Assembly: GCF_937930345.1 (NCBI RefSeq)
Contig: NZ_CALGLB010000031.1
Length of the DNA: 64,000 bases
Reading direction: 5' to 3' (one strand)
Source: an uncultured Prevotella sp.
GTDB lineage: Bacteria > Bacteroidota > Bacteroidia > Bacteroidales > Bacteroidaceae
Program-made: the position numbers and the translations under genes
In this document: piece after piece, positions 40,894 to 46,268 of the stretch
How the letters are laid out: the number at the start of each line of letters is the position of its first letter
Position numbering within the stretch: position 1 is the first letter of the stretch
Notes under the pieces: generated by a model
What the model was told of the DNA's origin: nothing
What the model saw: the letters and a program-made list of their open reading frames with translations, nothing else
Database searches by the model: none

Positions 40894-41355
40894 TTATTTC
40901 TTTATTTTTATGGCTTTTACTAAATGAAGCTCCTTTATACCGAGTTTACGAAGTTCGGGTGAATGCACATAAATGACACCGACCTCATAAGTGTCGGGCT
41001 TCACATGAAAACTGTAAAGCAGATAACCGGTATATGGCTTGACAAGCAGGCACGCATGGTAATGATACTTTCCGTCACTCACCGGAAAAATATACTCTTT
41101 CCCGCACAGACACCTGAAAATGCCGTAGGCTTCGTCCTCGCTGAACACACGAACCATCCTGATGTCCGTACGGTTGCGTGTATAGGGCTGACCGATGGCC
41201 TTGCCGTCCGGGAAAAGGACGGCAAGGATGCTGTCGGAATCCCCTTTCTCCGACGCAAATGACCTGATGTCGCCTGCTGACAAAGCAAGCGACATCAGGA
41301 TAAACATACGCAGGACAGCGTAAAATACCGGATTATTTATACTTTTTGTACGCAT
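40894..41355 (-). CDS. small secreted protein, last gene (H) of the LytTR-linked cassette
   Basis: With a start at 41355, the N-terminus MRTKSINNPVFYAVLRMFILMSLALSAGDIRSFA looks like a signal peptide. The start is ambiguous (the long ORF begins at 41502; another ATG is at 41307). Confidence 0.4.
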   Translation of the reverse strand: MRTKSINNPVFYAVLRMFILMSLALSAGDIRSFASEKGDSDSILAVLFPDGKAIGQPYTRNRTDIRMVRVFSEDEAYGIFRCLCGKEYIFPVSDGKYHYHACLLVKPYTGYLLYSFHVKPDTYEVGVIYVHSPELRKLGIKELHLVKAIKIKK

Positions 41356-42166
41356 TTTCCAATTTCGTATCATATTGGTTTTGGGCATACGACGGACCGT
41401 TGTAATGACGGGCAAACTCTTTCCAGTCAAGCGTGCGGAGATACTTGTCCCATTTGTTCCCTTGCAGGAAGCGGACGAACAAATCCAGCTGTTTGCCCTC
41501 ATTTTCCGTCATGTCATCGACAAACTCGCTTACATTCTTGCAGCCGCAAGCCTTGTAATTGAATCCCATGATCTGTGCCAGCCCCCAGCTTGCGGAAGAA
41601 TCGGCGGCTTCACGATGGATGGCACGGGCTTTCTCCAGACGGTCATATTCCTTCATACCGCCCTTATAGTGGCTTTTGTCCCACTTCGGATAAAGAATAT
41701 CCTCGTTTCCTTTCTGATATTTTTCCGGGTCAATGCCTCTTTCCTTTAACTGACTCCAGAAAATATGGCCTTCAAAGAGAATGGTCGGATAACCCGGAGA
41801 TAAGAAACCGCCCTTATTGCCAGTTTCCACTTCAAGAACGGCTTTGACCGCTGCCACTTCAACGCCGAGCAGACCGGCTGCTCTCTCATAATCGGCATCA
41901 TTGATGCGATAGGAAGAAAGGGCGCGGGCATCCTCGTTCTGAAGCAAGTCCCAGGTACGTTTGCCGACTATGCCGTCGGTGTCCAGTCGTCCGTCACGCT
42001 GGAATTTACGGACGGCAGCATCCGTTTCCGCGTCAAAAACACCAGTTCCGTTCACCTTATATCCCCACTTGTAGAGAAGTTGTTGGAGCAGTTCCACGTC
42101 CGGACCTGTCGAATTTAATCTGATTGTTTGCATAATCTTTCTTTTTTTAATGGTTATGTCGTTCAA
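41333..42166 (-). CDS. peptidoglycan-binding domain plus N-acetylmuramidase (DUF3380-type) protein, endolysin-like (cassette gene G)
   Basis: PG_binding_1 pattern GPDVELLQQLLYKWGY...DGIVGKRTWDLL, followed by ...GGFLSPGYPTILFEGHIFWSQL...SWGLAQIMGFNY.... Confidence 0.7.
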   Translation of the reverse strand: MNDITIKKRKIMQTIRLNSTGPDVELLQQLLYKWGYKVNGTGVFDAETDAAVRKFQRDGRLDTDGIVGKRTWDLLQNEDARALSSYRINDADYERAAGLLGVEVAAVKAVLEVETGNKGGFLSPGYPTILFEGHIFWSQLKERGIDPEKYQKGNEDILYPKWDKSHYKGGMKEYDRLEKARAIHREAADSSASWGLAQIMGFNYKACGCKNVSEFVDDMTENEGKQLDLFVRFLQGNKWDKYLRTLDWKEFARHYNGPSYAQNQYDTKLENAYKKYK

Positions 42167-42232
42167 ATGAAAAGGAGCGGCGAGCCCCTCAATGCTTTTC
42201 CCGCACGCTCCTCAGGACGATATGAAACGGCA

Positions 42233-42568
42233 TTATATCAATCCTTTGTTCATAGCTGTAACCTCATACAGGGCTTTATATACCCGGTAAAGGAACTGGA
42301 ACAGTTCGGTTGCGCTGAACTCGCCGTCCTTACCGATACCGATGTCCTTGTTCTTTCCCGAAGGGTCGAAAAACAGGTTGTCGGGAAGTTGCGGACCGCT
42401 TTCCACCAATGACGGGTAGAACTTCTCTTTCCACAGTTTCATGTCTTCATCGTTGAACTTTACATTACCTTTTGTCTGCGGATACTTTGACACATACTTT
42501 TCCAGCATGGTTGCACAAGCCACCAGCATTTCGGACTGTCCGTCCAGACATTTTTCAAATGGATTCAT
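42233..42568 (-). CDS. hypothetical protein (cassette gene F)
   Basis: 111-aa ORF, 3 nt after the stop of gene E. No recognisable domain. Confidence 0.5.
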   Translation of the reverse strand: MNPFEKCLDGQSEMLVACATMLEKYVSKYPQTKGNVKFNDEDMKLWKEKFYPSLVESGPQLPDNLFFDPSGKNKDIGIGKDGEFSATELFQFLYRVYKALYEVTAMNKGLI

Positions 42569-42571
42569 AAA

Positions 42572-43108
42572 TTACATTTTTTTAGAGTTGATAAAATATA
42601 TGGTTAACAAACACTCTTTCCCTTTCGTCAGACGAAGGAAAAGCTTTTTCTCCGAGAGTATTTTTTTGTTGATCAGTTCAATTTTTCCTCCGTCTTGAAA
42701 CGAGACACTGATTACGGTCTTGTCACCTATACGTCGGGTTGTCAACCGCGACACTTCTACACGAGGTATGCTGAGCAGGAAAAGATAGGCGTCCACAAAA
42801 TTTGCCGGACGTACCTTCCATTCCGCACGGTTACCGTTCTTCCGTACGGAAAAGAGCCGTTTTTTGCTCAAATGTTCCAACCGTTTGCAGATGATGTCAG
42901 CAGAAATGCTGTTTTCGGGGAATCCTTCAGGAGAAAGGGGTGAAATGTCCGGCATCGGAACCGGAGGTACACCGGGAGAATCCGGCGGGGTATCGGTATG
43001 CCTGTTCTCATAGGGTTCCTCTTTCCGAAGTCCCAGTGAGCGCAAAAACGCAACGTACCATCGGTGTATGGTGGACTTGACCCGTTTCCATGTTCCTTTT
43101 TTTTCCAT
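42572..43108 (-). CDS. hypothetical protein with a proline-rich linker (cassette gene E)
   Basis: 178-aa ORF, 9 nt after the stop of gene D. Basic N-terminus, PPDSPGVPPVPMPDISPLSP linker, beta-rich C-terminus. Confidence 0.5.
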   Translation of the reverse strand: MEKKGTWKRVKSTIHRWYVAFLRSLGLRKEEPYENRHTDTPPDSPGVPPVPMPDISPLSPEGFPENSISADIICKRLEHLSKKRLFSVRKNGNRAEWKVRPANFVDAYLFLLSIPRVEVSRLTTRRIGDKTVISVSFQDGGKIELINKKILSEKKLFLRLTKGKECLLTIYFINSKKM

Positions 43109-43117
43109 GACCGTTTT

Positions 43118-44792: not shown

Positions 44793-44823
44793 AAGATTCT
44801 TTTTTAGGTTTTAATGATCTGAA

Positions 44824-45669
44824 TTACTGTTCTACTTTCACATTCAGCTTTTTGTCGGCATTGTCAGTAACTTCAACAGTGTAATCACCGATAGCCTTCA
44901 ATTCAAAGACTGCGCTCTCTGCATTGGTTTCAGTAGCGTTGCAAGGATTTCCGTTTCCATCTGTTACTTTGACTTTTTCAGATTCGAACAGACCGTTACA
45001 GTTCTTGTAAGTGACAATCAAAGTCGCATTGCCGTTCGGGTCAAGAGTCAACTTGCGAGCATTGACTTCAAGTGTACCTTTTGGATTGCTGACATCCATC
45101 GCGCTGCCCAACAGTTCAAGCACTTTTGCCAGACCTGCAGGCATACTGTCCTGTCCGGCCTTCACCGCCACGTCCATTGTGTATTCCACACTGTAACGTG
45201 AATCCTGTGTAGCCTTTGAGTCCTTTTTGGATGAATAGTTGGCTTTCATGTCTGCTTCCACGCTGAAAGGTCCCCAGCCGGCTTTGGCTTTGATGTTTGC
45301 CCCGGCATCTATCGCCTCAGAAGATGTGTTCTCCTGAACCGAAGAAGATGATGCAGAAATGTTGGCCTTGAAGTTGATGTCCACGTTCTGGATTGCAATG
45401 TACGGGATAGGTACAATGGTCAGCAACGGAACATTCAGCTGTACCATGCGTCCGTCCTGCATGAACTGGAACGATACGTTCACTGCCTCTTTCTGATTTG
45501 TCTGCGGATTGACCGTCAGACCTACTTCCTGAATAAACTGCCATGATGTCTGGGCTGCCATAGCCTGTGCTTCGATTGCAGCTTTCAACGGACCTCCGAT
45601 AATGGAACCGAAGGGAATCGCTTGTAGCGCACTGGTTGCTACTTGCGAAGGGGTGGTGTCAATTGCCAT
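44824..45669 (-). CDS. hypothetical protein, paralogue family member A with an Ig-like C-terminal domain
   Basis: IIGGPLKAAIEAQ, LNVPLLTIVPIPYIAIQNVDINF and DSMPAGLAKVLELL blocks, then a beta-sandwich-like tail of about 85 aa. Preceded by AGGAGG-N5-ATG. Confidence 0.6.
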   Translation of the reverse strand: MAIDTTPSQVATSALQAIPFGSIIGGPLKAAIEAQAMAAQTSWQFIQEVGLTVNPQTNQKEAVNVSFQFMQDGRMVQLNVPLLTIVPIPYIAIQNVDINFKANISASSSSVQENTSSEAIDAGANIKAKAGWGPFSVEADMKANYSSKKDSKATQDSRYSVEYTMDVAVKAGQDSMPAGLAKVLELLGSAMDVSNPKGTLEVNARKLTLDPNGNATLIVTYKNCNGLFESEKVKVTDGNGNPCNATETNAESAVFELKAIGDYTVEVTDNADKKLNVKVEQ

Positions 45670-45771
45670 AATGACCTCCTTTTTTTAATTGTTAATAATA
45701 AATTGTTTTAATGTAACCTGTAGGTTTACGTTTATAAATTTAATGGAGGTATATGTATCGGGCAATTTCGT

Positions 45772-45800
45772 TTTACGAACTTCCGGAATCCTTTACGAAC
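45772..45800 (-). promoter_or_regulatory. pair of perfect 9-bp direct repeats (candidate LytTR operator)
   Basis: TTTACGAAC at 45772-45780 and 45792-45800 (11-nt spacer, 20-bp register). The pair lies between the LytTR gene stop (45807) and the cassette start (45669). Confidence 0.4.
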
Positions 45801-45806
45801 GGCATT

Positions 45807-46268
45807 TTAAGTATTCTTTCTGAAACCGACAAAAGAAAAACGTTGAAAGAAATCTTTGCGATATTCGCGACCTACCGGAATATATTGGCCGTTCATTCTT
45901 ACACAGTTTCCGGCGATACTTTCAATATTTCCGATATTTACAATATAGGAACGGTGTATCCTCATAAACTTTTCTGTAGGAAGGTCTTTCATGATATTGG
46001 TCAGATTGATTGAAACCATCATTTTGTTTCCGTCCTTGAAATGGATGCAACTGTAACTTCCGTCAGCCTTAATCCATAGAATATCTTCGTCATCCACTTT
46101 CAAATAATCTGTCTGGTTCCATATCAGCAGATACTTTTTCTTAATAGGGGTTGATGATTCTAAGTTCAATGCGATATTTCTGCAACCCGAATTAACTTCA
46201 AATCGTATAGGCAATCCTGCCAGACTTTCAGGCAAGGTAATTACCAAAGTTACTATGTTTACCGACAT
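45807..46268 (-). CDS. stand-alone LytTR-domain DNA-binding protein
   Basis: ILWIKADGSYSCIHFKDGNKMMVSINLTNIMKDLPTEKFMRIHRSYIVNIGNIESI is a classic LytTR pattern. No receiver domain. Start taken at the ATG at 46266-46268. Confidence 0.75.
   Translation of the reverse strand: MSVNIVTLVITLPESLAGLPIRFEVNSGCRNIALNLESSTPIKKKYLLIWNQTDYLKVDDEDILWIKADGSYSCIHFKDGNKMMVSINLTNIMKDLPTEKFMRIHRSYIVNIGNIESIAGNCVRMNGQYIPVGREYRKDFFQRFSFVGFRKNT

Follow-up and report, generated by a model that had tools for sequence, protein, structure and literature searches.

A DUF2589 four-gene core with a LytTR regulator and a facultative muramidase on a Prevotella conjugative transposon: a candidate undescribed system

Introduction

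What can be said about the function of a gene cluster when hardly any of its products resembles a described protein? This question is raised by a 64,000-nucleotide (64-kb) stretch of DNA from an uncultured Prevotella species (contig NZ_CALGLB010000031.1), the whole of which is called the window here. Nine open reading frames (ORFs) were confirmed on its minus strand within 40894-46268, namely a gene for a LytTR regulator and eight genes named A to H. An earlier note on this DNA had described them as an eight-gene cassette of no assignable function headed by the regulator. The conserved unit is smaller. It consists of a four-gene core, A-B-C-D, with a frequent LytTR gene, a facultative muramidase (G) with partners of the E/H family, and a lineage-specific F. 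The A-B-C-D core looks like an undescribed kind of system, and it is set apart by sequence, profile and literature searches and by the model of B, not by the fold of DUF2589, the domain of A and C. The regulator and the muramidase are, by their domains, ordinary members of known families. Our favoured reading, to which a probability of about 35% is given, is that of a LytTR-switched operon in which DUF2589 proteins without signal peptides form an assembly with variable exposed parts, and in which the muramidase module releases this assembly.

Results and discussion

Conservation of the gene set

One genome per species was scanned, which gave 80 loci, and these were analysed with our own ORF calls and iterated hidden Markov models (HMMs); wider counts of gene presence were made over 96 loci. 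The order A-B-C-D is kept in 75 of the 80 species-level loci, in several phyla, and the other five are incomplete. Class 1 (55 loci) has two DUF2589 genes together with B and D, always in the order A-B-C-D. Class 2 (20 loci) has 5-8 DUF2589 paralogues of 172-736 amino acids (aa) around B and D. B is present in 90 of the 96 loci, always between the DUF2589 genes, and D stands directly after C in 93 of them. A LytTR gene is found nearby in 42 of the 53 class 1 loci with enough upstream flank and in no class 2 locus. A muramidase of the PF11860 type lies within about 3.5 kb in 21 of the 45 class 1 loci with enough downstream flank and slightly farther away in two more, and near one of the 20 class 2 loci. 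F (42233..42568, minus strand), an acidic protein of 111 aa without any family match, has homologues in only 11 of the 96 loci and appears to be lineage-specific. Therefore, the unit is not the eight-gene cassette but the A-B-C-D core, to which LytTR (42 of 53), the muramidase (at least 21 of 45) and F (11 of 96) are joined to different degrees. The earlier note had also considered that the genes might not occur together outside this locus. They do occur together, and diverged copies keep the order. With these copies and with identical ones on hundreds of contigs, metagenomic contigs included, the cassette is found far beyond chance.

The loci belong to Bacteroidales, Flavobacteriia, Cytophagia, Akkermansia and three cyanobacterial genera (four loci), and truncated loci were found in Anaeromyxobacteraceae and Thermoanaerobaculia. 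Class 2 hosts are Porphyromonas, Paludibacteraceae, Prevotella multiformis, Hallella and others (L063, L065-L069, L072, L074, L077-L083, L086, L088, L089, L093 and L095). Downstream of several class 2 loci comes either a conserved protein of about 290 aa (DUF6734 in the one case tested) or one of 331 aa (an EamA transporter in the one case tested). A version with about 50% identity in Segatella copri encodes LytTR, an M35 peptidase, DUF2589, B, DUF2589, proteins of 76, 159 and 137 aa, and the muramidase; it sits on other conjugative transposons (CTns) and mobilisable elements and is as common as the window copy. In Prevotella merdae the genes are chromosomal and ordered as DUF2589, B, DUF2589, a small protein and the muramidase, followed by LytTR. 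Peptidase genes are also seen within some loci. In Segatella (L009-L013, L017-L028) an ORF of about 180-260 aa between LytTR and A encodes an Aspzincin_M35 metallopeptidase without signal peptide, and in Flavobacterium (L096, 12545-13309) a Trypsin_2 peptidase comes directly after D.

Four proteobacterial records were found, and no B homologue was detected in them. In the two that were read at protein level, a C-like and an A-like gene form a pair, and a conserved protein of 87-91 aa follows (L115, 7899-8174; L116, 7915-8178). It ends in ...VYHIGF.RKP..L and is not a zinc ribbon, although it occupies the position of the zinc ribbon of Bacteroidota. On a deltaproteobacterial plasmid, a PF11860-type muramidase gene lies 2 kb downstream of the DUF2589 pair, co-directional with it and among genes for small secreted proteins. 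The link between DUF2589 and muramidase is recurrent across phyla and is not obligatory. When 736 neighbouring proteins were clustered and the 96 flanks were scanned with Pfam, no conserved flanking gene such as one for a secretion ATPase or a transporter was found. Since the flanks are unrelated, the core is self-contained.

The core proteins and the case for an assembly

A (44824..45669, minus strand) is composed of a DUF2589 domain at about residues 1-195 (Pfam 1.4e-29) and an immunoglobulin (Ig)-like tail at residues 199-280. C (43338..43976, minus strand) is a second DUF2589 protein (Pfam 2.3e-19), which has an acidic tail and no Ig-like domain. Their scores against PF11655 are 103.8 bits for A and 70.7 bits for C with a gathering cut-off of 23, and B gave no match. 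The statement of the earlier note that only G carries a nameable domain has to be corrected for A, with its two domains, and for C. A and C are paralogous, being 22% identical and aligned by BLASTP across the whole domain (1e-4), and 38 of 39 C-type homologues match DUF2589. The family is large, with 1,676 clusters at 50% identity (E ≤0.001).

B (44007..44792, minus strand), encoded between both DUF2589 genes, is a mostly helical protein of 261 aa that matches no Pfam family, PDB entry or fold. Its AlphaFold model is helical, with a predicted local distance difference test score (pLDDT) of 67, and a Foldseek search against PDB and BFVD returned no fold neighbour, only the noise of helical bundles. 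B was also considered as a cryptic DUF2589 protein. The hhalign probability was 8% and then 25%, which is suggestive and was not accepted; the weak similarity lies between the N-terminal 63 columns of B and the N-terminal helix and proline-rich strand of DUF2589 (E 8e-4 at 25% probability). D (43118..43351, minus strand) is a predicted four-cysteine zinc ribbon of 77 aa (CPxC...CPxC) with a basic C-terminal tail. Its gene overlaps that of C by 14 nucleotides (nt), and its zinc-ribbon matches in Pfam, NCBIfam and PHROGs were weak only.

Searches of Pfam, NCBIfam, PHROGs and PADLOC with the nine proteins gave only DUF2589, LytTR, the muramidase domains and the weak zinc-ribbon matches, and B, E, F and H had no match in any of the four. 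Nothing was obtained from PDB by sequence and profile searches with A and B and with A-, B-, C-type and E/H profiles, and a relaxed Pfam scan of 39 C-type members revealed no recurrent weak family. Sheath, tube, baseplate and tape-measure families of Pfam and PHROG were not matched by A to F. The literature was searched with locus tags, with LytTR together with Bacteroides and with the Pfam and InterPro accessions, and nothing relevant appeared; a full-text search for DUF2589 found two passing mentions only. Tandem DUF2589-related genes in Archaeoglobus have been noted in a paper. The earlier note had asked whether A to F fall into a characterised module, and by the sequence and profile searches they do not.

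Among 149 A-type representatives, 54 have at least 350 aa and 19 at least 500 aa, and the longest has 1,894 aa, the length being added by variable C-terminal extensions. Big_1, Big_2 or TIG repeats were found in 7 of the 10 longest A-type proteins examined. In the close homologues of A, identity is 85-88% in the DUF2589 core, 56% in the Ser-rich loop and 45% in the Ig-like tail. This gradient from core to loop to tail agrees with a scaffold that is conserved and exposed parts that vary. The Ig-like domain of A was modelled by AlphaFold2 with a pLDDT of about 88, and its Foldseek matches are Ig-like folds only. The DUF2589 part of A gave a pLDDT below 50 with a shallow alignment of close homologues only, and a profile search to widen this alignment returned the same clade again. 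Neither a signal peptide nor a transmembrane (TM) helix was found in A to G. By the Kyte-Doolittle scan there is no TM-like segment in B to G, and the TM-like stretch of A (residues 75-94) is the proline-rich strand PLLTIVPIPYIAI. Sets of several paralogues are typical of shell, filament or pilus subunits.

A supramolecular assembly is proposed because the core is self-contained, occurs in paralogous sets, combines a conserved scaffold with variable loops and Ig-like tails, and has no export signals. The A-D core would then be a multi-subunit protein assembly made in the cytoplasm. The DUF2589 domains, perhaps with the similar N-terminal helix-plus-strand element of B, would serve as the conserved scaffold, with the Ser/Thr-rich loop and the Ig-like tail pointing to the outside.

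The same proteins could also be read as a membrane lesion. According to this explanation, A, B and C oligomerise into an inner-membrane lesion or pore that substitutes for a holin and serves G, which would make the cassette a module for regulated lysis, or for a toxin, instead of cargo with a means of release. In the DUF2589 family two strongly amphipathic beta-strands lie around a Ser/Thr-rich insert, and a GWGP hairpin is conserved in the A-type members. However, amphipathic strands are unspecific and are found in any two-layer beta fold, and the GWGP hairpin is under the amphipathicity threshold in the family profile. The low AlphaFold2 confidence for DUF2589 would agree with a pore, and folds that depend on oligomerisation often model poorly in general experience. 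Similarity to pore-formers or gasdermins was, however, found neither by family nor by PDB profile searches. G without signal peptide in a cassette without TM holin would find its missing partner in such a pore, and the position of the module in a phage contig, after the small terminase where phage BS-TP1 has its lysis region, points the same way. On the other hand, long Ig-like arrays and sets of 5-8 paralogues without muramidase are hard to reconcile with a holin-like role. The peptidases in some operons (Aspzincin_M35 in Segatella, Trypsin_2 in Flavobacterium) recall gasdermin-protease pairs. In some lineages here, as in the bacterial gasdermin-protease operons, the gene beside that of a protease codes for a non-TM protein with amphipathic beta elements, and cell death is a possible outcome in both. 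The differences are that no sequence similarity was detected, that there is no protease in the window, and that gasdermins offer nothing equivalent to the Ig-like tails or to the paired paralogues. Considering both sides, we regard a DUF2589 pore, the main rival of the favoured reading, as unlikely.

The muramidase, its partners and the case for release

The ORF of G spans 41333-42166 on the minus strand, and gene calls on identical copies use the ATG at 42133, which gives a protein of 266 aa (41333..42133). It has PG_binding_1 and N-acetylmuramidase domains (Pfam 5.2e-71 and 3.1e-17) and no signal peptide. G matches the endolysin family phrog_1224 (4.6e-95), and it is aligned end to end with PDB entry 5nm7 (4.1e-48) with the EVE(S/T) motif retained. 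By these alignments G is a full-length homologue of phage endolysins. The Burkholderia phage AP3 endolysin (5nm7) and the PF11860 endolysins have the same PG_binding_1 plus muramidase architecture; the difference is that G lies outside a phage, is flanked by E/H-family proteins and is tied to the DUF2589 core. A terminator-like element, a GC-rich hairpin with a T-run, was located by consensus scan between F and G (42172..42190, minus strand), upstream of the ATG at 42133.

In E (42572..43108, minus strand) a basic amphipathic N-terminus is joined through a proline-rich linker to a domain of about 100 aa that is common to H. H (40894..41355, minus strand), whose gene overlaps that of G by 23 nt, is the exported paralogue of E; it has a signal peptide, and its single hydrophobic segment in the Kyte-Doolittle scan is N-terminal. 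The domains of E and H were related by hhalign with 72% probability (E 3.4e-5), and H was related to two further clusters of neighbouring proteins with 91.5% each. Nothing similar was found in Pfam by a relaxed scan of 27 E/H members or in PDB with the family profile, and the domain appears to be new. The family occurs in an exported form, with a signal peptide here and of lipoprotein type in several homologues, and in an E-like form with the basic amphipathic N-terminus and linker. Its members adjoin the muramidase in most species loci that have them, and H adjoins G, on either side, in most of those that have H. In several H homologues a Cys comes right after the hydrophobic segment, which is lipoprotein-like. 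The locus was checked for spanins: lipoprotein-like H homologues are encoded beside G, no TM-anchored partner was found, and the E/H domain matches nothing known.

Release by wall breach is proposed because a phage-type endolysin with partners recurs at the end of the operon and because a LytTR activator accompanies it. Where G is present, this signal-less enzyme would open the wall together with E/H-family partners, one cytoplasmic and one exported. This would set the assembly free or expose it, either because part of the population lyses or because the wall is breached locally. The position of the module in a BS-TP1-like phage contig, where BS-TP1 has its endolysin region, was also counted for release. 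The logic can be likened to that of type 10 secretion, tailocin and Shiga-toxin loci.

Tailocins (R and F pyocins) and the products of the late regions of Shiga-toxin prophages are released by an adjacent lysis cassette under one activator, and they leave only those cells that lyse. The present locus likewise has multi-paralogue proteins of structural type without signal peptides, Ig-like decoration, an adjacent endolysin gene and an activator switch. It differs in that no sheath, tube, baseplate, tape-measure or capsid homologues were detected, that the core has four genes only and that an SOS-type regulator is missing. In type 10 secretion (YenTc of Yersinia entomophaga, the Serratia and Salmonella chitinases and typhoid toxin), a gene for an endolysin-type hydrolase is co-directional with genes for signal-less proteins, as is the case here, and a dedicated transcription factor and horizontally acquired DNA are further points of likeness. 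Its logic is cytoplasmic folding followed by breach of the wall (PMC10847048; PMC13284979), and it sets a precedent for phage-derived lysis genes that release cytoplasmically folded cargo (PMC10847048). In contrast, the cassette has no holin and no clearly recognisable spanins, and its muramidase is facultative, being found at about half of the loci. The putative cargo, moreover, is a conserved four-gene set, not a toxin or an enzyme.

The LytTR switch

The body of the regulator gene (45807..46268, minus strand; Pfam LytTR 5.6e-18) encodes a LytTR domain at residues 58-146. The protein, of 152-155 aa, has nothing beyond this domain and no receiver domain. Therefore, it is a stand-alone regulator, as the earlier note had stated. 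The description of the gene in the window has to be revised because an IS110-family insertion sequence (IS) interrupts it (46249..47864, plus strand; transposase ORF 46468-47577). The segment of 1,616 base pairs (bp) is present in one allele (L003), where the called transposase gene has the DEDD_Tnp_IS110 and Transposase_20 domains, and missing from another (L001); its point of insertion follows about codon 6 of LytTR. The start codon that the gene now has belongs to IS-derived sequence. The native N-terminus in the IS-free allele L001 is MEEKLSLVITLP, and the displaced first 17 nt of the native ORF (ATGGAAGAGAAACTATC) are found by collinearity with L001 at 47865..47881 (minus strand). An upstream ORF of 85 aa, now at 47835-48074, is also separated from the LytTR gene by IS110. 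Both the IS-free and the IS-bearing alleles circulate in metagenomes.

A perfect direct repeat, GTTCGTAAA-N11-GTTCGTAAA, is located at 45772..45800 (minus strand), 6 nt past the LytTR stop codon and in front of A, and the 9-mer occurs nowhere else in the 64 kb. It is a putative LytTR binding site. Its geometry agrees with that of known LytTR sites, which are 9-bp direct repeats with a spacer of 11-13 bp just upstream of the promoter (PMC6193735), and binding is predicted on this ground. A possible promoter of the Bacteroides type at 45735..45766 (minus strand) starts 5 nt downstream of the repeat; it was read from the letters as aTTG (45766-45763), 20 nt and TAaaTTTa (45742-45735). The Bacteroides promoter consensus is TTTG / TAnnTTTG. 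A follows LytTR after 137 nt, and the next gene in other lineages is A or that of the M35 peptidase. Other lineages also have direct repeats with a period of 20-22 bp at this place, and the sequences differ between them: one mismatch or none was seen in 12 of 42 loci, and the best mismatch averages 2.0 vs 2.67 in shuffles. In the proposed mechanism, the LytTR protein would bind the 9-bp repeats upstream of the A promoter and turn the operon on.

A second, degenerate LytTR-box-like repeat, GTTTACAAA-N11-GTTCATAAA, lies at 47941..47969 (minus strand). In the IS-free allele L001 the native LytTR start codon comes 88 nt after the beginning of this box, and in the window the IS cuts the box off from the gene body. 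It is unique in the window, it was matched in 0 of 100 shuffles, and its spacer of 11 bp is that of the box before A. Its position upstream of the regulator's own gene suggests autoregulation. Since IS110 parts the LytTR gene from its own start codon and from this upstream box, the switch in the window is probably disabled, or else rewired and driven by the end of the IS, which holds a sigma70-like promoter match (46429-46401, minus strand) directed toward the LytTR body.

The HdrRM and BrsRM systems of Streptococcus mutans resemble this arrangement in the stand-alone LytTR protein without receiver, in the two 9-bp repeats with an 11-bp spacer, and in the second degenerate box. The LytTR targets in S. 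mutans include bacteriocin, competence and cell-death genes (PMC6193735). Here, however, no gene for a membrane inhibitor follows the regulator, the next gene being A, and the phylum and the regulon are different.

Mobile elements and phages

The exact B protein was found in the same context on many contigs, in the order topoisomerase, DUF1896, a helicase of 1963 aa, an optional IS110, LytTR and A-H, followed by two multi-TM proteins and OmpA-Mfa2-Mfa_like. In one of these contigs (L004, 1032-2699) a group II intron reverse transcriptase (RVT_N, RVT_1, GIIM) replaces the 5' part of the helicase gene, and only a 3' helicase fragment of 406 aa is called downstream of the intron. The A protein is identical in the Prevotella window, Phocaeicola barnesiae, Bacteroides eggerthii and Mediterranea, which is consistent with recent transfer between families. 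It had been asked whether the order recurs with a LytTR gene and on mobile elements, and the module was indeed found on CTns, on mobilisable elements and on contigs of temperate phages. In cyanobacteria and Akkermansia it is chromosomal, with no signs of a mobile element.

A few contigs of temperate Bacteroides phages like BS-TP1 (L097, L098, L102 and L103, from one metagenome) carry the complete module, LytTR-A-B-C-D-(E/H)-G-H. In L097 (IMGVR_UViG_3300045988_177989) it occupies 9346-15162, after the small-terminase gene, and the block upstream of it, from DNA polymerase III alpha to the small terminase, is syntenic with BS-TP1 (PQ571274.1). At the corresponding place BS-TP1 encodes a GAF protein, two hypothetical proteins and an unrelated endolysin. 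In the three other contigs about 3 kb separate the module from an RNase H homologue that precedes it. No module was found within 10 kb on either side of the large-terminase gene in 23 close relatives of BS-TP1. In the viral collection 18 of 2.9 million contigs were matched and 7 of those carry the module; the 50,697 phage records gave one match, an unannotated 4-kb record, and the cultured phages are without the module. A core phage function was considered and rejected, the module being rare in viral collections and an occasional phage cargo.

Other DUF2589-like sequences were seen in viral contigs. In eight contigs of 34-435 kb (L107-L114), ORFs near 9760-10250 encode a protein of about 155 aa with two DUF2589 strand motifs, LKVPLLTIVPIPYI and VNVPALNIVPIP. 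It matches the A-family HMM with about 1e-11 to 1e-14 and no PHROG, and its neighbours are nucleotide-metabolism genes and a head-closure protein. The surroundings of large-phage proteins that share the VPLLTIVPIPYI motif are uninformative.

The presence of an endolysin and the few phage-like contigs that carry the module could mean that the cassette is a phage lysis cassette or prophage remnant on a CTn, with A to F as leftovers without joint function. G is indeed a typical phage endolysin. However, A to F and H match no PHROG except for the weak zinc-ribbon match of D, and the rarity in viral contigs and phage records, like the absence near the large terminase in the 23 BS-TP1 relatives, is not expected of such a remnant. 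The order A-B-C-D is moreover kept across phyla in loci that have no phage genes and, in many cases, no G, and the neighbours of the window copy and its identical copies are CTn backbone and pilus genes, not phage structural or replication genes. A mere remnant is therefore very improbable.

Anti-phage defence by abortive infection, carried as cargo by mobile elements, is a further explanation. The zinc ribbon or LytTR would sense the phage, and DUF2589 and the muramidase would kill the cell early. The distribution over CTns, mobilisable elements and temperate-phage contigs would suit this role, as would a compact, self-contained set of mostly unknown families with a hydrolase that could effect suicide. 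On the other hand, PADLOC-DB 2.0 gave 0 matches for the nine proteins at E values up to 0.1. The flanks are heterogeneous and do not resemble defence islands, an AbiEii-type AAA domain being matched by only 2 of 96 flanking proteins. An activator with an upstream box is unusual for abortive infection, the extracellular-type Ig arrays and the paralogue expansions would have no obvious role in it, and the cyanobacterial and Akkermansia copies are chromosomal without mobile-element signs. We hold defence to be quite improbable. The earlier note had speculated on lysis-mediated release, antagonism or abortive infection; the evidence favours the release of an assembly over defence.

The window copy and its neighbours

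The ORF coordinates, spacers and GC (guanine plus cytosine) contents given in the earlier note were reproduced for all nine ORFs. The spacers from A to G are 31, 30, -14, 9, 3 and 66 nt, and the overlap of G and H, which had been called probable, is real and amounts to 23 nt. No further ORF of at least 20 aa fits into the gaps between the cassette genes, and an Rfam scan of 38-49 kb gave no match. The GC content is 45-48% for A-H and 36.5% for the LytTR gene; the pilus genes (33-38 kb) lie at 51-60% and the backbone (49-58 kb) at 50-57%. The cassette had been taken as cargo of separate origin on this ground. The GC difference is real, but it is the one argument for a separate origin, and the same arrangement is fixed in every copy of the CTn. 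The island as a whole (33000-61000) has a GC content of 42-60%. Positions 1-32000 have 28-47%, mostly 30-41%, and the first 32 kb include the housekeeping genes for ATP synthase beta and a C69 dipeptidase and six tRNA genes (4.4-9.4 kb); both proteins carry the annotation of an uncultured Prevotella, which is a low-GC host. The contrast with the first 32 kb is consistent with import of the island from a higher-GC Bacteroidales donor.

Two multi-TM proteins of 379 and 385 aa are encoded (38084-40777, minus strand) between the cassette and the OmpA-Mfa2-Mfa_like pilus operon at 33970-38073. A Segatella protein at the corresponding position has an AraC-type helix-turn-helix at its end. This neighbourhood raises the question of whether the cassette is an accessory of conjugation or of the Mfa-type pilus, in which the muramidase opens the wall and A to F are assembly factors. 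The cassette does lie between the CTn backbone and the pilus operon, and the same pilus operon also adjoins the module on Segatella CTns. However, it flanks the module on one side in one CTn type and on the other side in the other, Mfa-like neighbours occur in 15 of the 96 loci only, and most loci are not on CTns. Mfa pilins take the Sec and lipoprotein route, which also counts against such a role. This explanation carries hardly any weight.

Points that weigh on the favoured reading

Several results weigh against the release of a DUF2589 assembly by the muramidase module. About half of the class 1 loci lack G, as do 19 of the 20 class 2 loci, and since it is so often absent, release by G cannot be a general rule. 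No holin-like TM protein that would take G to the wall was found in the cassette. AlphaFold did not give a fold for the DUF2589 domain (pLDDT below 50), the similarity between B and DUF2589 is weak, and Ig-like domains indicate a tendency, not a location. The sole published trace of the family is a modest change in the transcript of a DUF2589 gene of B. fragilis, in meropenem-treated cells compared with those from which the drug was removed.

A broader form of the idea goes beyond the window. The set DUF2589-B-DUF2589-zinc ribbon might be a new and widespread self-assembling structure, such as a filament, a shell or an envelope-spanning device, tipped with Ig-like domains and independent of Sec, to which Bacteroidales would have added a holin-independent muramidase route switched by LytTR. 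In this breadth the proposal is doubtful. The probability that the favoured reading and its four rivals leave belongs to functions not yet thought of.

Conclusions

The DUF2589 family is large and unstudied, and its four-gene core comes with a ready-made switch and a predicted operator, which makes it directly testable. Because identical copies are found in several genera and on hundreds of metagenomic contigs, and because the Segatella copri relative is equally common, the module is an abundant trait of the human gut microbiota that spreads horizontally. Should it build an assembly that is released or exposed, this would represent both a new structure and a new route across the envelope. If the broader reading of a self-assembling structure is true, a new protein architecture and a Gram-negative envelope route would be spread by CTns and phages. 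If the module is instead a lysis or killing device, it would bear on vesicle and DNA release, on competition, and on the effects of CTns and phages on host fitness.

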